32,000 nt of DNA, from NCBI RefSeq assembly GCF_000284455.1, contig NC_017039.1, forward strand, positions 660,001-692,000, read 5' to 3'. This document shows, piece by piece, positions 1 to 9,853 of the stretch (position 1 is its first letter; every line of letters begins with the position of its first letter). Both the position numbers and the translations under genes were made by a program. The notes beneath the pieces were generated by a model that was not told where the DNA came from, did not search any database, and was given only the letters and a program-made list of their open reading frames with translations. Source of the DNA: Synechocystis sp. PCC 6803 substr. PCC-P. Its GTDB lineage: Bacteria > Cyanobacteriota > Cyanobacteriia > Cyanobacteriales > Microcystaceae.

Positions 1-686
1 TTCTTTACCCTTTAATGCAGGGGTATGATTCTGTCGCTGTAAATGCAGATGTGGAATTGGGGGGCACTGATCAAAAGTTTAATATTGCGGTGGGCCGGGA
101 TTTACAACGGCATTTTGGCAAAACTCCTCAATTTGGTTTACTGTTGCCGATTTTGCTGGGGACAGATGGACAACAAAAAATGTCCAAGTCTCTGAACAAT
201 TATGTGGGTTTACAGGAAGATGCTTTATCCATGTACTCCAAGCTGGAGAAGACGCCTGATCGCCTGTTGGGGGAATATTTCGAGTTACTAACTAACTTGG
301 ACTTGGCCGAGTTACCGGAGAATCCCAGGGAGTGCCAAAAGTTGCTCGCCAAGGAAGTTACAGCCCAGTTCCATGGAGTTGCAGGGGCGATCGCCGCCCA
401 AAAAACAGCGGAGGATATTGTCACCCAAGGTAAGGCGGGTAATACGGACAGTGTGCCGGAATTTTCCCTAGCTGAAATTACTTTTCCGGTGAAATTGGCC
501 TATCTCCTCAGTGCCAGTGGCCTGTGCCCCAGTAGTAGTGAAGGGAGAAGGCAAATCAAGGGGGGGGCTGTGCGCTTAGATGGCGATCGCCTAGAGGATG
601 TTAATCAGGAATATGCCGATCCCAAAATGTTAATTAATAAGGTGTTGCAAATGGGCAAGAAAAAATTTATTCGTCTGATTTCTTAA
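1..686 (+). CDS. tyrS: Tyrosyl-tRNA synthetase, C-terminal ~228 codons (5' end lies upstream of the window)
   Basis: The frame is open from the window edge ([10 protein letters not shown]...). It has the class I KMSKS signature ([11 protein letters not shown]) and a C-terminal S4-like RNA-binding tail ([15 protein letters not shown]). Confidence 0.9.
386..686 (+). repeat. Direct repeat copy A: the 3' end of the intact tyrS
   Basis: Aligns by hand to 2987-3290 (offset 2601, becoming 2604 at the end). There are 6 mismatches in 386-452, none in 453-538 (an 86-bp perfect core) and 9 in 539-614. The tail after that is strongly diverged and differs in length by 3 nt. Confidence 0.9.
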
Positions 687-853
687 TCTCCAAGGCGATC
701 AGCTTCTTAACTTTCACAAAAAGCGATCATTCTATTCGTAACAAGCTCACACTCGAAAAAAGAGGTTTAACGCTTTCCCAAAAATCGCACTGCGATATTG
801 TAGATCACACCAGCATAGATAGTATGCTGATGAGCAGGTTTTTTAGTTATGAG

Positions 854-859
854 TATAAT
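854..859 (+). promoter_or_regulatory. Candidate -10 hexamer (perfect TATAAT) 15 nt upstream of the first islet ORF
   Basis: TATAAT sits at 854-859. There is no Shine-Dalgarno sequence between it and the ATG at 874, so the transcript could be leaderless or short-leadered. The -35 region (tgagca, 831-836) is only a weak match. An alternative pair is TTGTAG 798-803 with TAGTAT 820-825 (16-nt spacer). Confidence 0.3.
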
Positions 860-873
860 CAAACGAATTTGAT

Positions 874-1227
874 ATGCCCACCCCACAAGCACTGTATCGC
901 GGGGCTGTACAAGCTCAAGGTGACGACATTACACAAAATGGGGGCTATACTCGCTCTTGGGCGCGGGGTACTCCTGTGACGGCTCAAGAGGGATTAGACT
1001 TTCTTGCTAAGATTGAGGAACAATGCAATGAGTCTCAGAAAGAACAACGAAATTCAGCTTTTGTCAAAGCTGAACGTTTTATCAAGAATGCTAGTAAAAA
1101 TGGAGGTGTTGATCAAAATTCTCAACCTCATCCTTTTCAAAATCCTAGACGTACTGTTCCAAACGCTCGTGTTGATATTGAAATTCGCAAAGGTTTGACT
1201 TTTATTCCTGCTAAAAATTTGGAATGA
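874..1227 (+). CDS. Hypothetical protein, 117 aa (islet ORF1)
   Basis: ATG-initiated ORF. Its stop overlaps the next start in ATGA (1224-1227). I recognise no motif. Composition switches sharply inside the ORF: 69/120 G+C in 874-993 versus 42/120 in 994-1113. Confidence 0.55.
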   Translation: MPTPQALYRGAVQAQGDDITQNGGYTRSWARGTPVTAQEGLDFLAKIEEQCNESQKEQRNSAFVKAERFIKNASKNGGVDQNSQPHPFQNPRRTVPNARVDIEIRKGLTFIPAKNLE

Positions 1228-2921
1228 CAATACTTTTTACCAAAATTCAAGCAATGTCAGACTCTACCGATTTGGATAGAGCAATAGATAAGCTTGACAA
1301 AATTTCTATTAATTTTGGTGCCGTAGATGAACAGATAAGGTGTTTTGCATTTTTATTAGCAATTGCCGAAGAAAATATTGCTGAGATTGTCTTAGGTATA
1401 TTAGTTAGAGGAATCATGAAATATGAACCAAATAGGGTTAATAATGAAGTTCTTTGGCTATTTTTGGCAGCCGTTTTGTCTCGTTCAAATATTACGCCTG
1501 CCAGTGCTTTAAGAATTAGTCTTTTAGGAATAGTATCTCGTATTGAAGATTGGGCATCACCCATTTTTGCATTACTAGTTACCGCATTAGATAGTTTTTT
1601 ACGTAATAGCCTGGAATATGGAGACCCTTTAATTGCAGAGCAAACTTTAGATTTTCTTGCCACTTGGGGCGAGAATTATGCTCAAGCACCTCGTACTTTA
1701 GAGCAAGTTGCAAAGATTAACTCTTTAGCTCGTTTAGTTTTACAAAAAGTTGATGAACCTATTCTTCAGGAGGAATGGTCAGAAGGGTTAGATTTATTTT
1801 TAAATATTGCTCATATTGCTTGTAAAATAAAATATTCAGATCAACGTATTTGGTCGTCTTCAGTAGAACTACTTAAGGATCTCTATCCTGTAAATATTTT
1901 AAATAATAATAATGAATATTCAGACAAGCACCGTCAAGTTCAAAAAAATATTCTAAAATTAATTGATTCTTCTCTGGCTGTAATCGGAACTATTTTTGTT
2001 AGAGGAGGCTTGTCGGTCGTAGTACACATTGAGCATTTAAATCAGGAACTAACATGGTCACTTGGAGCTAGCGCAATAGATAGAATCGAGCGTTTTTTTC
2101 AGGAAGTATCAAGCATTTTCAAACTAGGATTTCCTAAATTTAATCAAATACAATCAATTCAAGGTTCTTGGATTCAGGTTCTTAATCTTCCTCTAACTCC
2201 TAGGGAAGCTAATATTTTAGCAACAGAAATTGCTTCTTTATCCTCAAAAAATTACGAACAAAGTGAGATTAATCAAAATACTATTGATAGTTGGCGAGAA
2301 TGTGCAGAAATCCTTAGTGAAAAGGACTTTAAGATTAACTTATCTGTTTCCACAAAGGATATAGGATTACAGATTATTCCTCCCATTTCTACAGAGAATT
2401 TTGCCAATATCTCTACAGGAGCAACTACTGATTTTAATGAACAAGAAAGAACACACATTAGAATTCTCTCTTGTGATGTTCCACAAGCTAATAATATTGA
2501 AAGAATTTTGGAGCTTGCACAATTATTTGTTCAATATTCATCTTCAACTCAAACTATTAGTGATAAGTTTCTTGAGATAAGAGGAACAAAATCTAGAGAT
2601 TTTTTCTATTATCGTAGAGCAATTGAAATTCTTAACCTTATTGATTGGCGTGGGCATCCGACCAACGTCTGTTCTGCTTTGTTTCGCTTATCTAAAAAAG
2701 AGGCAAAAATGAGACTTCTTGCCTATCAATTTATTTCTTCTAATGTTGGTTCTGCTTGGCTACTGTGGAAAAATGCCAATGATCTTTCAGAGATTAATCC
2801 TGACAGTGCAGAAGAATTTTTAACGGCAACTTGTCCATCACTTTCTCAAAAAACAATTGAACGACGTTCACAAACATTAAAAGCATGGCTCACTATCTTT
2901 CTGCAATACTGGGATTCTTAA
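1224..2921 (+). CDS. Hypothetical protein, 565 aa (islet ORF2)
   Basis: A 565-codon open frame in very AT-rich DNA, where stops should be frequent, argues for real coding sequence. It is coupled to ORF1 by the ATGA overlap. I see no P-loop, no recognisable nuclease, methylase or peptidase motif, no signal peptide and no obvious TM segment. The basic, aromatic C-terminal ~110 aa (RDFFYYRRAIEILNLIDWRG...KAWLTIFLQYW) could be a nucleic-acid-binding module; that is an inference. Confidence 0.7.
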   Translation: MTILFTKIQAMSDSTDLDRAIDKLDKISINFGAVDEQIRCFAFLLAIAEENIAEIVLGILVRGIMKYEPNRVNNEVLWLFLAAVLSRSNITPASALRISLLGIVSRIEDWASPIFALLVTALDSFLRNSLEYGDPLIAEQTLDFLATWGENYAQAPRTLEQVAKINSLARLVLQKVDEPILQEEWSEGLDLFLNIAHIACKIKYSDQRIWSSSVELLKDLYPVNILNNNNEYSDKHRQVQKNILKLIDSSLAVIGTIFVRGGLSVVVHIEHLNQELTWSLGASAIDRIERFFQEVSSIFKLGFPKFNQIQSIQGSWIQVLNLPLTPREANILATEIASLSSKNYEQSEINQNTIDSWRECAEILSEKDFKINLSVSTKDIGLQIIPPISTENFANISTGATTDFNEQERTHIRILSCDVPQANNIERILELAQLFVQYSSSTQTISDKFLEIRGTKSRDFFYYRRAIEILNLIDWRGHPTNVCSALFRLSKKEAKMRLLAYQFISSNVGSAWLLWKNANDLSEINPDSAEEFLTATCPSLSQKTIERRSQTLKAWLTIFLQYWDS

Positions 2922-2984
2922 CGATTTGAGTTAGAACTACGACTGATTTTCATATTCTGGGGTTCATAAAGGGAAAAAATTTAA

Positions 2985-3290
2985 GAGGCGATCGCCGCCC
3001 AAAAAACAGCGGAGGATATTGTCACCCAGGGGAAAGCGGGCAATACGGATAGCGTGCCGGAATTTTCCCTAGCTGAAATTACTTTTCCGGTGAAATTGGC
3101 CTATCTCCTCAGTGCCAGTGGCCTGTGCCCCAGTAGTAGCGAAGGGAGAAGGCAAATCAAGGGAGGAGCGGTGCGCTTAGATGGTGATCGCCTGGGGGAT
3201 GTTAACCAGGAATACCAGAAACCGCAGGATTTGGACGGTAAGGTGCTCCAGGTAGGCAAGAAAAAATTTATTCGCTTCACTGCGAATTAG
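2985..3290 (+). pseudogene. Orphan tyrS 3' fragment (S4-like domain only); direct repeat copy B
   Basis: 101 sense codons in the tyrS frame ([27 protein letters not shown]...[11 protein letters not shown]) are closed upstream by TAA at 2982-2984. There is no catalytic domain and no ATG; the track's 3054 start is a GTG. Confidence 0.8.
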
Positions 3291-3443
3291 CAATTAAAAT
3301 AGTAATTTATAACTACTCTCTCCGTCGGCGATCGAGGTAGAATTGGGGCGAACTGATTTGACCGGTCAATCCTGCCCATTCCTGCCTGATCCGTCCAGAT
3401 TCAACCAATTACTGCCCAACCTTAGAATTGAGGTTATCGCCCC

Positions 3444-3833
3444 ATGAACAGTTTTGTTTTAATGGCCACCGTTATTCGGGAACCGGAACTGCGCTTCACC
3501 AAAGAAAATCAAACCCCCGTCTGCGAATTTCTAGTAGAATTCCCCGGCATGAGGGATGATTCCCCCAAGGAAAGTTTGAAAGTAGTTGGTTGGGGCAATT
3601 TGGCCAACACCATCAAAGAAACCTATCACCCTGGCGATCGCCTAATTATCGAAGGACGCTTAGGTATGAATATGATAGAACGGCAGGAAGGCTTTAAGGA
3701 AAAACGAGCTGAGCTAACTGCTTCCCGCATTAGTTTGGTGGATAGCGGCAATGGCATTAATCCTGGTGAGTTGTCTTCTCCTCCAGAACCTGAAGCAGTG
3801 GACCTTAGTAACACCGATGATATTCCGTTCTAA
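3444..3833 (+). CDS. Single-stranded DNA-binding (OB-fold) protein-like, 129 aa
   Basis: The N-terminal region is SSB-like (LMATVIREPELRFTKENQTPVCEF...GDRLIIEGRL). A disordered acidic tail ends in the canonical SSB tip DDIPF. I recall this as a ycf41-type cyanobacterial protein, unverified. Confidence 0.75.
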   Translation: MNSFVLMATVIREPELRFTKENQTPVCEFLVEFPGMRDDSPKESLKVVGWGNLANTIKETYHPGDRLIIEGRLGMNMIERQEGFKEKRAELTASRISLVDSGNGINPGELSSPPEPEAVDLSNTDDIPF

Positions 3834-3889: not shown

Positions 3890-4417
3890 ATGGCGGATTC
3901 CCTTCCCAATTTAGTCGATCTCAACTTCTTACCTTTTTTAACGGAGGCTGGGGAAATTGATCCGAACTACGAAAAACGTATTGGGGTTTACGCCATTTTT
4001 GACCAGCATCAGAATCTACAATACGTAGGCTATTCCCGTAATTTAGCCATTAGCCTGCTGCAACATTTGGTGCGTCAACCAGAGCATTGCCATGGGCTCA
4101 AAGTACACATCATCGACCGCCCCGATCGCCAATTATTAGTTCAAATTCAAAACCATTGGTTGGTGGGGCAAAATCCTCCTGGCAATGGTGAAAGTCAGAA
4201 AATTTGGGCTGAATCGATTAATGTGCAGGATTATTGGACTCCAGAAGAGGCCGCCACCGTTGCTAAAAGTGAACCAGGGGACACGCCCAAACTTTTGAAA
4301 AAAATTGCCCGTAGGCTAGAGGCAGAAGTGTTGGCAAAACTGGAAGCCAGGGGAGTGGCACAACAAATTCGCTTCAATCCCAAGCTGAAAGAACAAGGGC
4401 TGTTGGACATCACCTAG
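3890..4417 (+). CDS. GIY-YIG-like domain hypothetical protein, 175 aa
   Basis: GVYAIFDQHQNLQYVGYSRNL fits the GIY-x(9-11)-YIG spacing. The rest of the protein is unassigned. Confidence 0.5.
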   Translation: MADSLPNLVDLNFLPFLTEAGEIDPNYEKRIGVYAIFDQHQNLQYVGYSRNLAISLLQHLVRQPEHCHGLKVHIIDRPDRQLLVQIQNHWLVGQNPPGNGESQKIWAESINVQDYWTPEEAATVAKSEPGDTPKLLKKIARRLEAEVLAKLEARGVAQQIRFNPKLKEQGLLDIT

Positions 4418-4495
4418 GATTCGCCCATAGCTGTCCATTAAAATATAAGGGGATCCAAGATGACCCTGACTGAAAAAAATGGACATTCGAGAGTT

Positions 4496-4882
4496 TCAAG
4501 AAAGTAATGAGAGGCGCCAGTTGCGTAGTAGTTCTATGTTACCATTGACCCTAAATTCGGCAAATATTGCCATGGTGATATCAACCATGTGGGCTGACCT
4601 GGAGACAACTTTCGTGGGGCGATGAAATCTAGCAAACCAATGACGGTTATCTGAGTTGTTTCTCTCAATTCCTACTGTTTCTCTTTTGCTAATCCCATGA
4701 AACGCATCGGGATGTTCATCCAGCAGTTGTTGATAGGGCCTCCAGTCATCGGTGCAGTACACCGTCACTTTCCACTTTGCCAGTCTCTCCAGCAAACGAC
4801 TCAGGGTTTGACTATCACGATTTCCCAGTTCCCAGTTCCCAGTCGATGAGTCTCCCAGTAACACGCTCATATGCCTTATCAT
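4496..4882 (-). mobile_element. IS1-family-like transposase, C-terminal part only (5'-truncated IS remnant)
   Basis: YCTDDWRPYQQLL and GIERNNSDNRHWFARFHRPTKVVSRS match the IS1-type DDE C-terminal pattern (TD-W--Y ... IER-N---R----R--RKT---S). Only about 120 nt separate this ORF from the next gene, so the N-terminal HTH/first-D region has no room. No convincing terminal inverted repeats are visible. Confidence 0.65.
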
Positions 4883-5004
4883 TATCTATTTGAAACTCTC
4901 CATTATTGATTTACAGAGCTTTCCTTTCTTCGTTTCTGGCCCAGTTTCAGGGATCCGCCTCACTCTTCGTTTCTTCGTTGTTGTGAGTTCACGCTCAGCC
5001 GGTA

Positions 5005-7107
5005 CTATTTTTCCCCGTCTTTAGAGGCACGTTCTTTTTCATCTCCATACAAAGGAGAAGTTCCGGTTCCTGTCATTAATAATTGTTGTTGGGGCACCCC
5101 AATGGCAATTTCCTGGGATTCAAAGGCCACTTTCACCCGCAGTCGCAATTCTCTGGCCACGTCCCATTGTTCCCCCGGCAGGGTCTTAAGCCAAATACGA
5201 ATAAGAATACCTTGGTGAGAAACCTCTTCAATACCCTTGAGTTCCGGTGCCTGGAGCATTTTAGGATGCCACCACGGATCGTGGTACAGACCCAGCGCCA
5301 CCTGTTGCAAAACGGCGATCGCCTTTTTGGGATCAGCATCAGCCGCCACCATAACGGAATAATCTACCCTGGACCAGTCTTTAGTTTGATTACACACTGT
5401 GCCAATGGCTCCGTTGGGAATGGTGACTAAATCCCCGTTGGGACAACGGATGCGAGTAACAAATAGGTTTGTATCTTCCACTACTCCTTCAAACTCGCCA
5501 ATCAGAACGAAATCATTAATGGCGAAGGCATCACTCATCAGATTAGAAATACCGGCAATTAAATCCTTGATCAAGTTTTGGGAACCGAAAGACACCGCAA
5601 AACCGATGATCCCTGCCCCAGCCAGTACTGTGGCCACCGGCACATCGAACAAACTAAGGGAAAAGACAAAGGCAGTAAAAATACAGACCACCAGGTTAAT
5701 GCCCCTGACAGCACTACTGACAGTGTTAATTCTAATTTTTCTTCGTGTATATTTGGCAGTTTGTAAAATAGCATAATCGTTTTCAATGGTATGGAAAAAA
5801 GACTCAATTAAAAAATCAGATATTTTAATTAAAATTATTGCCGATAACCAAATTAAAGTTAAAGAAATGGGAGTGCCCGATAACTGTCGTCCTAAACGTC
5901 GAGTGTTAGGAAAAACCTGCAGAAAAAAAGCACTACCACGGATCCAGATAATAAACAGGAAAAAAATTAGTATTCTCCGGGTAAATACAACTTGTTTGAG
6001 GCGGTTTTTCAGGAAGTCGTAAAAATCCTTGCCTTGGAAAAGTTCAAGAATATTTTCAAAAATTTTCTGGTTATCCAAAGAAAATGTCAGGGGAGGATTT
6101 TTTTTACTGTCCCCCCAGCCAACATTTCCGAATAGTATAGTTTTGGAGTAAGCACTTAAATAATAAAGAAAAATAGCTATCCGGTCTAAAATTTGAAAAG
6201 CGAAGGAATAGCGGGGAATGGCAGCAATATTTTTAAAAATAGACGCATCAATGTAATTATAATCAAAATTTGGGTCTTCCTCCTCCGCCTTAACTAAACA
6301 ATTAATAGCCATCTTTAGTAAGTGAATTCTGTGTCCCAGCCACCGATAAATAAATAGCACTACCAACGAAACTGTGACCACAATGGTGACAATTACTAGG
6401 GCAACTTTTATTTGTCTTCTCAGGGCTTCTGGTTGTCGTTCCCGCCTCGCTCGCATCAGGGCATTGCGGACTTGATCTACGGTTTCGGACGCTAAATCTT
6501 CCGGGGTAAGGGCGTATAAATCAGCATCAGCTTTGGTAATGGTGCGAAGAATTTGTGGCCGGAGATTTTTGTCATCGCTAATTTGAATAATGATCGCCCC
6601 ATTGAGAATAGAACTAGCAACATTTAAGGTTTCTGGATCAAAACCCCGCTGGACAATTTCTTTAAACTTACTTTCAATACGTTGTTGACGATAAACAATT
6701 GGACTAAGGGAAGAATCTCCTTCTTTACTAGCATTTCCTGTGGGCACAGCAATCAAAAAAATTGGCTCTCCATCTACCCTAACGGTGGTGTAATCCAAGT
6801 TACCAATTCTACCGGATAAATCTGATTCAAAGCCTAGATTAAAAGCTTTATTTTGCAGGGGGAAATCAGACTTGACGGGATCCACTAGGTCAATTTGGGG
6901 CGGTAGTTGACTAAGGAGAGTTTGTGCCGACTGGGCTTGGGCAAAACCTAGGCTTAGCAGTAAGGTGAGCAGAGTAAGGGCGATTAATTGACTTAAATTT
7001 AATCTTTGATGGCGAAAAATATAATTTTTTCTATTTGTTGGGAGCACTCTGACAACGAATAAATTCCAAAGGGAGGTTATCACTATCGGCAATGAATAAA
7101 ACTTCAT
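5005..7107 (-). CDS. MscS-family mechanosensitive channel protein with a large N-terminal extracytoplasmic/membrane extension
   Basis: The C-terminal MscS core is present (LAGAGIIGFAVSFGSQNLIKDLIAGISNLMSDAFAINDFVLIGEFEGVVEDTNLFVTRIR). There is a signal-like segment (LIALTLLTLLLSLGFAQA) and several TM stretches. The start is uncertain: TTG 7122, ATG 7107 or GTG 7047, all of which overlap the upstream gene. Confidence 0.8.
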   Translation of the reverse strand: MKFYSLPIVITSLWNLFVVRVLPTNRKNYIFRHQRLNLSQLIALTLLTLLLSLGFAQAQSAQTLLSQLPPQIDLVDPVKSDFPLQNKAFNLGFESDLSGRIGNLDYTTVRVDGEPIFLIAVPTGNASKEGDSSLSPIVYRQQRIESKFKEIVQRGFDPETLNVASSILNGAIIIQISDDKNLRPQILRTITKADADLYALTPEDLASETVDQVRNALMRARRERQPEALRRQIKVALVIVTIVVTVSLVVLFIYRWLGHRIHLLKMAINCLVKAEEEDPNFDYNYIDASIFKNIAAIPRYSFAFQILDRIAIFLYYLSAYSKTILFGNVGWGDSKKNPPLTFSLDNQKIFENILELFQGKDFYDFLKNRLKQVVFTRRILIFFLFIIWIRGSAFFLQVFPNTRRLGRQLSGTPISLTLIWLSAIILIKISDFLIESFFHTIENDYAILQTAKYTRRKIRINTVSSAVRGINLVVCIFTAFVFSLSLFDVPVATVLAGAGIIGFAVSFGSQNLIKDLIAGISNLMSDAFAINDFVLIGEFEGVVEDTNLFVTRIRCPNGDLVTIPNGAIGTVCNQTKDWSRVDYSVMVAADADPKKAIAVLQQVALGLYHDPWWHPKMLQAPELKGIEEVSHQGILIRIWLKTLPGEQWDVARELRLRVKVAFESQEIAIGVPQQQLLMTGTGTSPLYGDEKERASKDGEK

Positions 7108-7477
7108 AAATATGATCACCAATTTGTTGTTGCTGGGGATTTAAAAGAATTTTTAACGGCTCAATTTGTTCTGGATTGGTTTGATAGGCTTGGCTAAAAC
7201 TTTGGCTGAGATTATTCAACCATTCCGGTAAACTTTCTACCTGGTCTGTTAGATCAAAGGAGATATGATAGTAGCCCACGTAATGTTCATCTTTGAAGGC
7301 ATCAGGGGCGGGTTGGGGTTGGGGAATTTGAATTAATTCAATGCGTCCCCCCAGACCAGTCAACCAGCAAGCTAAGGTATAACCAGTGGTGAACCTTTCC
7401 CCCACGGTAAAACCCAATAGCTCATAAAAGGCGATCGCCCGATGGATATTAGCAGTACGAATAGAAACATGGTGCAT
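7031..7477 (-). CDS. VOC/glyoxalase-bleomycin-resistance family protein
   Basis: MHHVSIRTANIHRAIAFYELLGFTV is a typical VOC N-terminal beta-alpha-beta motif. The start is an ATG. Confidence 0.7.
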   Translation of the reverse strand: MHHVSIRTANIHRAIAFYELLGFTVGERFTTGYTLACWLTGLGGRIELIQIPQPQPAPDAFKDEHYVGYYHISFDLTDQVESLPEWLNNLSQSFSQAYQTNPEQIEPLKILLNPQQQQIGDHIYEVLFIADSDNLPLEFIRCQSAPNK

Positions 7478-7548
7478 GATGCTTTATGCTGGGGGAGTTA
7501 AGGGGAAATTAACTTTTCAGCGGTGCTCAATTTATTACAACCTTACCA

Positions 7549-7944
7549 ATGTCCGAACTGAAAATCCTAATTGTTGACGACGAACCCCACATTGTAATTC
7601 TGCTGGAAGAGGTGTTTGAGCTTTTAGAAGAAGATTACGGGGTGGAGTTATTGACCGCCATGGATGGGGAAAAAGCCTTGGCTTTAGCAGTGGAACATCA
7701 ACCCCAATTGGTTATTTTAGATGTGATGTTGCCCAAGATTAGTGGTTTAGCAGTTTGTCAACGTATTAAAGAAAATCCTGAGCTAGCTAATACCACGGTG
7801 ATTTTGCTCACGGCCAAGGGCCAACAGTTCGATCGCCAGGCAGGGTTAGCCGCGGGGGCGGATTGCTACGTAACTAAACCCTTTGGCCCCAGGGATTTAT
7901 TGGCCCAAGCGAAGGGAATTTTGGGTATTGAAGAAGAGGATTAA
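7549..7944 (+). CDS. Stand-alone CheY-like response regulator receiver
   Basis: ILIVDDEP..., LVILDVMLPKISG (phospho-acceptor Asp), LLTAKG and YVTKPF. There is no output domain. Confidence 0.85.
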   Translation: MSELKILIVDDEPHIVILLEEVFELLEEDYGVELLTAMDGEKALALAVEHQPQLVILDVMLPKISGLAVCQRIKENPELANTTVILLTAKGQQFDRQAGLAAGADCYVTKPFGPRDLLAQAKGILGIEEED

Positions 7945-7953
7945 TAGTCCATT

Positions 7954-8874
7954 TTAGAAAGATTCAGAGTTAGGGGTATGGTTAATCTCCTGGTCGAGCC
8001 AACGTTTTTTCCAGCGGCTGGTGGGCTCCAATGTACTTTTGCTCTGTTCCGCTCGACGACGGGCCAGAATTACTTCCGCTGGATCTGTTCCTGAAGGATC
8101 ACGGTAGGGGATGGCCGCCTTAGTTTGCAGATGTTCCATTTCCCAGGGGGCAAATATTGATGGGGGTGATGGCTGGTGGCTAGCCAGGGTACCCAGGGGC
8201 CGACGACGGGGATGGGGCGGTTGACCGTCTCCCATGGTGGCAATGGACAGTCCGGCCAGTTGTAAACCATGACGCACCGCCGCCGCACTGCAATAGGTGG
8301 CTAAACGGCCTGTTGGGGCTAGACGATCGCCTAAATGACAGAGAAATTCCACTGTCCACAGTTGGGGACATTTGGGCGGTGAGAAGGGATCGAGGAAAAT
8401 AGCATCGACCTTAATATCTCGGGGCACAACGGATAGTAATGTTTGCCGGGCATCCCCGATCGCCAGATGGGCAGTTAAAAATTCCCTGGCAACCATTTCT
8501 CTTTGAGCTAGATCCTGCAAAATCTCCTGCACCAAATCCGGCCAACCCTGGAGCAAGCCATTGGCGATCGCCTGGCGGGGCACTTGCAGATCGTTTTCCA
8601 AACTGTACAGAGTTACGTGGCAATGGGGATTAATTTGCCAGATGGCTGTTAGGGCCGCCGCTGTGTTGTAGCCCAAGCCATAGCAGACATCAATAATAGT
8701 TAACCTGGATTTTTTGGCCGCCAACTGGGGCAAAAGACAGGGATGAACAAACTTTTCGTCCGCCTCCGCCTTAGCACCCCGCTGGGAATGGAACGTTTCC
8801 CCAAATTGGGGCGAATAGAACGTAAAAGAACCATCCGCCGTCAACTGGGGAGTAAAAGGGGCCGCACTGGTCAA
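7954..8874 (-). CDS. MnmC/MnmD-like SAM-dependent tRNA (mnm5s2U34) methyltransferase domain protein (DUF752-type)
   Basis: DGSFTFYSPQFGETFHSQRGA, IIDVCYGLGYN (SAM motif I-like) and DAIFLDPFSPPKCPQLWT match the MnmC methyltransferase domain. The apparent start is a TTG 3 nt after the upstream stop. Confidence 0.6.
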   Translation of the reverse strand: MTSAAPFTPQLTADGSFTFYSPQFGETFHSQRGAKAEADEKFVHPCLLPQLAAKKSRLTIIDVCYGLGYNTAAALTAIWQINPHCHVTLYSLENDLQVPRQAIANGLLQGWPDLVQEILQDLAQREMVAREFLTAHLAIGDARQTLLSVVPRDIKVDAIFLDPFSPPKCPQLWTVEFLCHLGDRLAPTGRLATYCSAAAVRHGLQLAGLSIATMGDGQPPHPRRRPLGTLASHQPSPPSIFAPWEMEHLQTKAAIPYRDPSGTDPAEVILARRRAEQSKSTLEPTSRWKKRWLDQEINHTPNSESF

Positions 8875-8877
8875 AAA

Positions 8878-9264
8878 TTAGCCCTCCGTTCCCGGTTTAT
8901 CCTGGGCCAATTCCCCTTTCAAGGTGGCAATTTCCTCCGTCAGGCGATCGAGTTCCCTTTTCGCCGTCGCAAAATCGATGATGTTATTGGAACCAGTGGC
9001 AGTGGTTTTGCTAAGGGGGTTGGGCAGGGATTGTCGCCATTGTGCGAGCAATTGATCCACATACTGACGGGCTTCCGTTTCCGTAGTAGTGCCCTTTTGG
9101 GCCCATTGGCTGGCCCGTTGGTCCCATTCCTGTTGCAAATCCTGGAAAGTACCCTGGCGTTTTTGCGGATCCTGCAATGTTTCCACCAAACTAGCGGTGG
9201 CTCCCACCGTAATCCGAAAACCTTGCTGGATAGTGTCTAACAAAGTGCTGTTGTTGGTAGTCAT
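8878..9264 (-). CDS. Hypothetical protein, 128 aa, Q/T-rich helical with a C-terminal coiled-coil-like end
   Basis: ATG start. It lies in tandem with flanking minus-strand genes. No motif recognised. Confidence 0.5.
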   Translation of the reverse strand: MTTNNSTLLDTIQQGFRITVGATASLVETLQDPQKRQGTFQDLQQEWDQRASQWAQKGTTTETEARQYVDQLLAQWRQSLPNPLSKTTATGSNNIIDFATAKRELDRLTEEIATLKGELAQDKPGTEG

Positions 9265-9355
9265 CGTTAAAACTTAAGGTAGTTGAAGGTCAGGATTGAG
9301 TTCTCCAATGGTCGTTGCATTCAACAAGAACACCGTGGGTGAACCACGTTTGACC

Positions 9356-9853
9356 CTAAGCTAAACCAAAATGTCCTGTTTCCGCCACTGGACGGGGCAC
9401 CAAGCCAGTTTCCCAACAGAGTTTCTGGAAATCTTTGATCAACCCACTGCGCTCAATTTGCGAGTACCTATTCAGGTGACCTTTTTGGTTATAGACCAGC
9501 AACAGATCAAGTTCCGGTAGGGTGGCAAAATGCAACAATAAATTAAAAATGTCGATGGACCTAATTTGATATTCCTCCTTGGCAAAATTGGGGTGTCTTT
9601 GGGCATCCTGTTTATTACTAAAGCAAAATATGGCGGCCGCAGTTTTATTGCCCCCTTGGGCGCTCAGGGTGAGTTTGACTAGATTGTCATTGTGGCGACC
9701 AGTCCAAATATAAAGCGTATCCACATTCAGCTTTTTGCCGATTTCTTCAAACAGGGGAGTCATCACCAACTGCACCGCTTTTTTCTCTTCCTCGCTCCCT
9801 TGCGCTTGTTGGGACTGTTGTAGGAATTCTTCCTTAAATTTTTTCAGGCTCAT
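9356..9853 (-). CDS. Hypothetical protein, 165 aa
   Basis: ATG start, 7 nt downstream of the stop of the RNase H-like gene. No motif recognised. Confidence 0.5.
   Translation of the reverse strand: MSLKKFKEEFLQQSQQAQGSEEEKKAVQLVMTPLFEEIGKKLNVDTLYIWTGRHNDNLVKLTLSAQGGNKTAAAIFCFSNKQDAQRHPNFAKEEYQIRSIDIFNLLLHFATLPELDLLLVYNQKGHLNRYSQIERSGLIKDFQKLCWETGLVPRPVAETGHFGLA

Follow-up and report, generated by a model that had tools for sequence, protein, structure and literature searches.

Probable integrase-free insertion and homologous exchange of a mobile two-gene cassette at the 3′ end of tyrS in Synechocystis sp. PCC 6803

How did the chromosome of Synechocystis sp. PCC 6803 come to carry the 3′ end of tyrS twice, on either side of an insert that contains slr1032 and slr1033? 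The stretch of DNA analysed here (32 kb in length, termed the window) opens inside tyrS (slr1031), the full gene being that of L002, a 6803-type chromosome sequence identical to the window from tyrS through ssb (L002 4219–5433, 404 aa). Position 660772 of NC_000911.1, where slr1032 begins, corresponds to window position 874. Here, we find that the locus varies a familiar arrangement, an island set between duplicated 3′ gene ends: it has no integrase, and homologous recombination of the host drives it. In this model strain, ssr1720 is the displaced gene end. In the explanation that we favour, and which we regard as likely though well short of certain, a mobile cassette was inserted without an integrase, in a structure assembled once beside a highly iterated palindrome 1 (HIP1) site, which homologous recombination then exchanged between Synechocystis lineages and reshuffled. 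The parts of the locus, in window coordinates, are these:

1–686, forward strand: the 3′ 686 nt of tyrS (slr1031), with an open reading frame at 15–686 and Pfam matches to tRNA-synt_1b, SYY_C-terminal and S4; contains copy A
383–686, forward strand: repeat copy A, the in-gene tyrS 3′ end, a mosaic with parts 387–452, 453–562 and 593–686
386–395, unstranded: HIP1 decamer GGCGATCGCC, the left repeat end in copy A, conserved in 8/8 intact tyrS alleles (6803 and 7 genomes besides)
453–562, forward strand: tract common to both copies, 99.1% identical between A and B
582–591, unstranded: second HIP1 decamer, spanned by the copy A lineage switch (577–593)
593–686, forward strand: L-type tail of copy A, placed by protein alignment with the P0051–P0057 (L026 and L027) tyrS clade
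687–873, forward strand: cassette spacer and promoter region, 187 nt, common to PCC 6714 and in part to L028
874–1227, forward strand: slr1032 (p117), cassette gene 1, an open reading frame without a Pfam family
1224–2921, forward strand: slr1033 (p565), cassette gene 2, with an N-terminal phrog_38246 domain and a weak C-terminal DUF7226 match
2922–2986, forward strand: cassette 3′ spacer, 65 nt, up to the junction, 91% identical to the PCC 6714 spacer
2987–2996, unstranded: HIP1 decamer at the junction of insert and copy B, mutated to TCGATAGCC in PCC 6714
2984–3290, forward strand: repeat copy B, an orphan fragment of the tyrS 3′ end, mosaic in three parts that meet between 3053 and 3067 and between 3159 and 3164
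3054–3290, forward strand: ssr1720, the open reading frame annotated within copy B as similar to tyrosyl tRNA synthetase
3164–3443, forward strand: native right end, comprising the tail of copy B and a 153-nt spacer to ssb, collinear with the tyrS–ssb junction of strain CACIAM 05 and 98–100% identical to it

A repeat search aligned 383–613 with 2984–3214 (94% identity, offset 2601) and 638–673 with 3239–3274 (86%); homology reaches both stop codons, and the orphan in-frame stretch of copy B, 2988–3290, corresponds to the last 100 codons of tyrS. An earlier reading of the same letters, hereafter the original prediction, took the copies for two orthologous tyrS alleles, each held under selection, and its difference counts were reproduced in full. 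Six differences lie in 386–452 (at 428, 431, 434, 440, 449 and 452), every one at a third codon position and synonymous; the 86 nt of 453–538 are exactly the same in A and B; and nine differences lie in 539–614 (539, 563, 566, 569, 584, 593, 595, 605 and 614), eight synonymous and one, at 595 (GAG/GGG), changing Glu to Gly. Base-by-base comparison and the list of open reading frames gave no indels or frame disruptions between the copies. By the Nei-Gojobori method, there are 14 synonymous changes and 1 non-synonymous change over 387–614 (ratio of non-synonymous to synonymous substitution rates, dN/dS, 0.018), and dN/dS is 0.18 over the whole copy (387–683). Because both copies bear this signature of purifying selection, they are pieces of orthologous alleles and not a decaying duplication, in line with the original prediction. 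Copy B of 6803 has two lineage-unique changes, both synonymous. When the 14 third-position differences were permuted over 76 third positions, an identical run of at least 86 nt had P ~0.01. Near-identity of A and B in fact reaches 562 (99.1% over 453–562); the meaningful tract is about 110 nt rather than 86.

Both copies are chimeric, as had been proposed, with a tail like that of the metagenome-assembled genome (MAG) L026 in copy A and a tail like that of CACIAM 05 in copy B. The AT-richness of the copy A tail is real (31.9% GC over 615–686, compared with 35.4% for the insert, 45.3% for the copy B tail and 47.2% for the window), and so is the host-like character of the copy B tail. Over 615–672, copy A is 91.4% identical to L026 and about 60% identical to Synechocystis (host)-type tails, and the similarity of 6803 to L026 and L027 stops at the tyrS stop codon, because of which the AT-rich tail is a foreign tyrS allele and not insert sequence. 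In the protein alignment, its C-terminal motif is confined to the sister clade P0051–P0057, represented by these two loci, which agrees with the expectation of a cyanobacterial donor. The DNA downstream of tyrS in L026 and L027 has no similarity to 687–873, and the cassette is absent from that position in both. The C-terminus of copy B, on the other hand, is of the type found in five loci that lack the insert; over 593–683 (A coordinates) it is 98.9% identical to CACIAM 05, and it continues into downstream DNA that is 97–100% identical.

Upstream of the tails, more lineages are evident. Segment 387–452, with six informative sites, is too conserved for lineage placement; it is 97% identical to CACIAM 05 in copy A and 94% in copy B. 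The left arm of copy B is not L-type, that is, not of the lineage that gave the copy A tail. Thus, of the arm placement first proposed, the grouping of the right arm of B with the host was confirmed and the assignment of its left arm to the donor of the A tail was not. The 453–562 tract has 81–82% identity to CACIAM 05, and no other allele sampled exceeds 84.5%; it is foreign to the 6803/CACIAM 05 background, and we read it as a probable recombination or gene-conversion tract. The switch of copy A from Synechocystis-type to L-type falls between 577 and 593; window 224–592 represents an unsampled 'U-type' lineage (453–562 being an orphan 'U-type' haplotype) and 593 onward is L-type. Further toward the 5′ end of tyrS, the 6803 patch at L002 3951–4370 is nearest to PCC 6714, the other carrier of the insert (87–92%); whereas, the CACIAM 05 equivalent groups with non-carriers (89–96%). 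The mid-gene part of tyrS is 92–96% identical to CACIAM 05. Judged from these alignments, tyrS of PCC 6803 is a multi-lineage chimera, copies A and B being patchworks of at least four orthologous tyrS alleles.

Comparison with strains that lack the insert indicates how this patchwork may have been acquired. In five Synechocystis loci (L022, L023, L024, L025 and L030, from two LEGE strains, PCC 7338, a Logan assembly and CACIAM 05, the last being L030), tyrS encodes a 405-aa product and is followed directly by ssb, without the cassette. CACIAM 05, a sister strain, is syntenic with 6803 on either side of the locus, with sliding-window identity of 97–100% on both flanks. Identity falls to 70–95% from L002 ~3938 (window ~−809, at the 3′ end of the upstream AAA-ATPase gene) through the end of copy A, with an onset about 1.5 kb upstream of the repeat; it is 79–95% in the sequence 300–1500 nt upstream of the repeat, and returns to 98–100% within copy B. 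The divergent block (L002 ~3938 to 7906, window ~−809 to 3159) has both ends in homologous sequence and spans the indel. Scored against copy A and CACIAM 05, copy B reads 'uuCCuu', then 20 A-type sites, then 35 of 36 C-type sites; it fits neither over 387–452, is A-type at 20/20 sites over 466–558, and is CACIAM 05-type at 35/36 sites from 563 on. Its breakpoints lie between 452 and 466 and between 558 and 563 in A coordinates (3053 and 3067, 3159 and 3164). A maximum chi-square analysis, a recombination-breakpoint check of the kind recommended with the original prediction, supports the second of these (permutation p<1e-4).

Synechocystis sp. PCC 6803 is naturally transformable. The difference between 6803 and CACIAM 05 looks like one exchanged block, an allelic replacement by double crossover whose right end would lie at 3159–3164, within copy B. 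Either 6803 gained the insertion-bearing allele or CACIAM 05 lost the insertion; gain is slightly favoured, in that PCC 6714, the second carrier, is where the tyrS patches of 6803 group, and the CACIAM 05 allele is at baseline distance from non-carriers. We also considered simple excision in CACIAM 05 by recombination between A and B, and rejected it: upstream tyrS in CACIAM 05 is not of the copy A type. Replacement of islands by transformation through flanking homology has been described as 'chromosomal curing' (PMC4795794). As in that case, there is an empty-site sister strain, a sharp-ended divergent block that spans the insertion, and a naturally competent organism. The difference is that one end of the block lies here inside the terminal repeat of the island itself, making copy B a recombination arm. 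The terminal repeats of this island are pieces of an essential gene, and act as arms for recombination, through which lineages trade alleles that carry the island for alleles that lack it.

The second carrier, PCC 6714, has the insert with other boundaries. Its finished chromosome (L029, where the cassette occupies 7502–9537) encodes tyrS (404 aa), p117, p561, a 78-aa tyrS fragment and then ssb, and both the sequence after the tyrS stop codon and the junction of cassette and HIP1 are homologous to those of 6803. Copy A of PCC 6714 is host-type to 672; element-type sequence is confined to the final 14 coding nt and what lies beyond, with the switch at ~653–672. Copy B (L029 9604–9906) is a different Synechocystis-type allele, with a left arm 'QETAEA' that is 91% identical to L025 and to L022. 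Its lineage-unique changes number 7 non-synonymous and 6 synonymous, including P to L and R to H at TyrS-invariant residues, and both of its HIP1 sites are mutated, with the reading frame still open. This points to relaxed constraint and probable decay. Because dN/dS between A and B of PCC 6714 is ~0.1, its copy B, too, derives from an allele that was once functional, and did not arise by duplication of the neighbouring copy A. Thus, the boundaries of the chimeras are not the same in 6803 and PCC 6714, while the insert and the internal junctions are. Differing boundaries are expected of homologous recombination, not of a site-specific recombinase. An assembly artefact was considered and rejected, as the structure is present in several 6803 assemblies as well as in the finished PCC 6714 genome. 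Copy B of PCC 6714 also has a short patch that resembles the L-type (LED.N), at A-coordinates 593–605.

What lies between the copies is a unit known from other genera. The insert (687–2986) is 2.3 kb long, low in GC and HIP1-free, and has just two open reading frames longer than 100 aa. These two, p117 and p565, are a conserved gene pair in more than 25 further cyanobacterial loci, in hosts that include Nostocales, Coleofasciculus, Floridaenema, Snowella, Spirulina, Microcystis and Pseudanabaenales. Nucleotide similarity across genera is limited to ~2.1 kb (L004 and L006, for example, are 85% identical across that span alone), and the limits of the insert in 6803 are the cassette limits seen in other genera. 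Low GC and near absence of HIP1 characterize the cassette in almost every host. In the more than 25 other loci, the cassette never lies beside tyrS, nor do long repeats flank it; a search for target duplications around it in other genomes found none, save a 27-nt direct repeat ending in HIP1 that flanks p565 in L012 (9595–9621 and 11624–11650). No recombinase or integrase was matched in the insert by Pfam, PHROG or PADLOC, and none was found in PCC 6714, Floridaenema or the other cassette loci examined.

The search for a donor covered genome contigs with a p565 alignment (19 loci), metagenome contigs with P0003 (8 loci) and viral scans (1 locus). In none of these did tblastn match TyrS beside the cassette, and none held a circular form or a donor with the tyrS 3′ end joined to the cassette; the original prediction had pointed to a genome with the cargo directly behind tyrS, and such an arrangement was seen in 0 of the 19 genome, 8 metagenome and 1 viral loci. 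On the metagenome contig with P0004 (L028), the gene upstream of the cassette is Uma2, not tyrS. The cassette itself is mosaic: between 6803 and PCC 6714, p565 is 90% identical and p117 80%, and between 6803 and the metagenome contig with the closest metagenomic cassette (P0003/P0201), the values are 81% and 64%, respectively.

HIP1 decamers GGCGATCGCC are located at 386, 582 and 2987, the last at the insert/copy B junction, where the original prediction had placed one. HIP1 octamers number 31 in the window (about 1 per kb) and 0 in 687–2986. Two of about six boundaries coincide with HIP1, namely the junction at 2987 and the copy A lineage switch at 577–593; no HIP1 coincides with the two breakpoints of copy B, the 653–672 switch of PCC 6714 or the point where the divergent block begins on its left side. 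HIP1, or HIP1 with one mismatch, is found 56–81 nt past the p565 stop codon in 5 of 11 independent host contexts (L002, L028, L007, L011/L021/L012 and L006), this interval having been picked post hoc, once the data were known. In a cyanobacterium, HIP1 in homology arms has been found to raise the efficiency of transformation and recombination (bioRxiv 10.1101/2024.09.10.611283). Given this reported Chi-like effect on transformation, the placement of HIP1 behind p565 is suggestive, though not established. The role of HIP1 has been in question for 30 years; the two boundaries that coincide with it add a small piece of evidence, in agreement with recent experiments that suggest a Chi-like role.

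How might these elements fit together? In the explanation that we favour, the horizontally mobile slr1032–slr1033 cassette would travel with its own replacement tyrS 3′ end. A single assembly, with one joint at the tyrS-internal HIP1 decamer and an exchange within tyrS 3′ homology, would have given the order of tyrS with a foreign tail, cassette, HIP1, and displaced tyrS 3′ fragment. The route may have been by way of a circle, through Campbell-type integration, or by homologous recombination on one side and a microhomology joint on the other; these routes are indistinguishable here. Host homologous recombination would later have maintained the structure, transferred it and repeatedly overwritten it, with crossover points that vary within both 300-nt repeats, and the 110-nt tract common to A and B would have been inherited together with the exchanged block, as a recombination or gene-conversion tract. 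We show that the structure, once assembled, has indeed been maintained, transferred and overwritten. As such, the locus is a natural example, resolved at the sequence level, of the way in which an island that lacks a recombinase can enter, persist and move in a cyanobacterium that is polyploid and naturally transformable.

Several points weigh against this explanation. The original assembly event is one that we infer rather than observe, and the association with HIP1, which leans on two of about six mapped boundaries, is not established. The evidence base is thin, as it comprises two carrier genomes. The left arms (387–452) offer six informative sites, and which way the exchange went is judged by distances from a few outgroups. 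The mid-gene identity of tyrS to CACIAM 05 implies several tracts or events and not one clean block. Among the loci searched, none was a donor that has the 'U-type' haplotype or in which an L-type tyrS is directly followed by the cassette, and L026 and L027 have no cassette.

The original prediction envisaged a 2.6-kb circle, carrying tyrS 386–686 and the cassette, that entered by a single Campbell-type crossover in the 86-nt core, leaving copy A as host followed by donor and copy B as donor followed by host. Such integration, familiar from suicide plasmids in cyanobacterial genetics, uses host RecA-type recombination alone, and predicts repeats that equal the cloned homology, chimeric copies and an internal circle junction. 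Much of this is seen at the locus: direct repeats that would represent the homology segment, chimerism in both copies, a foreign tail on A and a native tail on B, a left arm that is closer to CACIAM 05 in A than in B (97% versus 94%), and a junction at HIP1. Reciprocal chimerism from two parents, however, is not what the copies show. Lineage switches twice within copy B, the left arm of B is other than L-type, and the core is non-host in both copies, at just 81–82% to CACIAM 05. Divergence also reaches well outside the repeat, which a circle of 386–2986 cannot cause; tyrS upstream of 386 would be untouched host sequence in a Campbell-type event, and its 79–95% identity to CACIAM 05 is at odds with this unless CACIAM 05 is itself the recombinant. 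Finally, PCC 6714 shares the insert with other boundaries. On these grounds, the single-circle scenario fails for the present structure, and we consider it an unlikely account of the locus, although it may still fit the original event in some ancestor.

About equally improbable, in our estimation, is homology-facilitated illegitimate recombination of linear DNA, with tyrS as the anchor and the 10-nt HIP1 as the joint. Here, copy B would originally have been the intact recipient end, and the core would be due to later conversion of B by A. The joint falls exactly at GGCGATCGCC, which is conserved in all tyrS alleles, and the HIP1-like sites behind p565 in 5/11 contexts could supply the partner, giving a microhomology joint whose recipient side is the conserved decamer. 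Natural transformability of Synechocystis, which is established knowledge, also speaks for this route. The mechanism is documented in other competent bacteria (PMC3240628), where it likewise pairs a homologous anchor on one side with a joint at a short, GC-rich microhomology; loss of recipient DNA is its usual outcome, whereas a 300-nt duplication is left here. Other observations that do not sit well with the idea are the want of a donor with the cassette directly behind tyrS among the loci searched, the left arm of copy B in 6803, which fits neither A nor CACIAM 05, and the dN/dS of ~0.1 in PCC 6714, by which copy B is no former duplicate of its own copy A.

A more far-reaching notion is that the cassette is a non-autonomous, HIP1-bounded mobile unit that spreads through host recombination, with HIP1 as a portable Chi-like or microhomology site. 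We hold this to be doubtful. If true, a tyrS 3′ end captured between two HIP1 sites would serve as a homologous 'attachment arm' in Synechocystis, and repeated Campbell-type integration and excision at variable crossovers would explain the mosaic, multi-lineage tyrS fragments.

The remnant of an integrase-mediated island or prophage at the tyrS 3′ end, with attL and attR and an integrase that was later deleted, is a quite improbable source of the structure. Islands and prophages at the 3′ end of a tRNA or protein gene have as their hallmark a duplicated gene end by which the reading frame is restored, and this is present here: as in those elements, a diverged, element-borne end keeps the gene intact (with its foreign tail, copy A encodes a full TyrS of 404 aa) and the native end is displaced downstream as a direct repeat (the orphan copy B). 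In addition, p565 has cyanophage homologues beside tail genes. Yet neither 6803, PCC 6714 nor the other cassette loci examined have an integrase or recombinase, and in place of a fixed att core there are ~300 nt of homology on either side of the identical tract. The switch points vary (577–593 in A, and 452 to 466 and 558 to 563 in B, of 6803; ~653–672 in A of PCC 6714), the insert is a 2.3-kb two-gene cassette, and its limits match those of the cassette in other genera. As for a decaying, in-situ tandem duplication of the tyrS 3′ end, between whose copies the cargo was independently inserted, nothing beyond the existence of a direct repeat speaks for it, and it is ruled out by the substitution pattern (dN/dS 0.018–0.18, no indels or frame disruption) and runs against the origin of the two tails in different tyrS clades, so that we give it almost no credence.

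The cargo function received no assignment from Pfam, PADLOC, PHROGs, PDB sequence search, AlphaFold2 models or Foldseek. The AlphaFold2 models of the two proteins are confident (predicted local distance difference test, pLDDT, 81 and 86), and no PDB entry matched by sequence, or by fold in Foldseek. There was also no match to a defence or toxin–antitoxin family: in PADLOC, p117 was sub-threshold (E 0.02) and p565 gave nothing, and Pfam returned the weak DUF7226 alone. The N-terminal domain of p565 matches phrog_38246, the family of gp104 of Microcystis phage Ma-LMM01. Ma-LMM01-type Microcystis phages have this N-terminal domain only (L001 4001–4801, gp104). A full-length p565 homologue is present on a 90-kb viral contig (L041 8001–9668, IMGVR_UViG_3300042486_001390), directly after a tail-protein gene; its DUF7226 match is above the Pfam cut-off, an IS605 OrfB/TnpB gene lies nearby, and p117 is absent. 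In proteogenomic supplement data, the slr1032 protein is represented by six peptides (65% coverage), and ssr1720 by none. Weak transcription and a low ribosome-profiling signal have been recorded for ssr1720, and its transcripts are up in a lexA mutant. A function for ssr1720 as a stand-alone S4 protein is unlikely in view of the missing peptides, the low ribosome profiling and the altered invariant residues of its PCC 6714 counterpart.

In TyrS P0183, from a 99-kb MAG contig (P0076 cluster), a frameshift lies exactly within the region equivalent to the shared core (…KLAYLLGAAASVLVVVKEGDKLKGERCG). Faulty assembly of the MAG could account for it, as could a further rearrangement at the same spot. 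Scans of the region for Rfam families, promoters and terminators were uninformative. Downstream of the locus lie the following genes:

3444–3833, forward strand: ssb-like gene, the native downstream neighbour of tyrS in 5/5 empty-site loci
3890–4417, forward strand: 175-aa gene, downstream of ssb in all Synechocystis loci

The 175-aa protein has a weak, sub-threshold GIY-YIG match at its N-terminus. Between its gene and a mechanosensitive-channel gene lies a fragment of an IS1-family transposase (window 4496–4882, reverse strand), and an IS1-family transposase fragment occupies the equivalent place in CACIAM 05 (L030 8424–8831).

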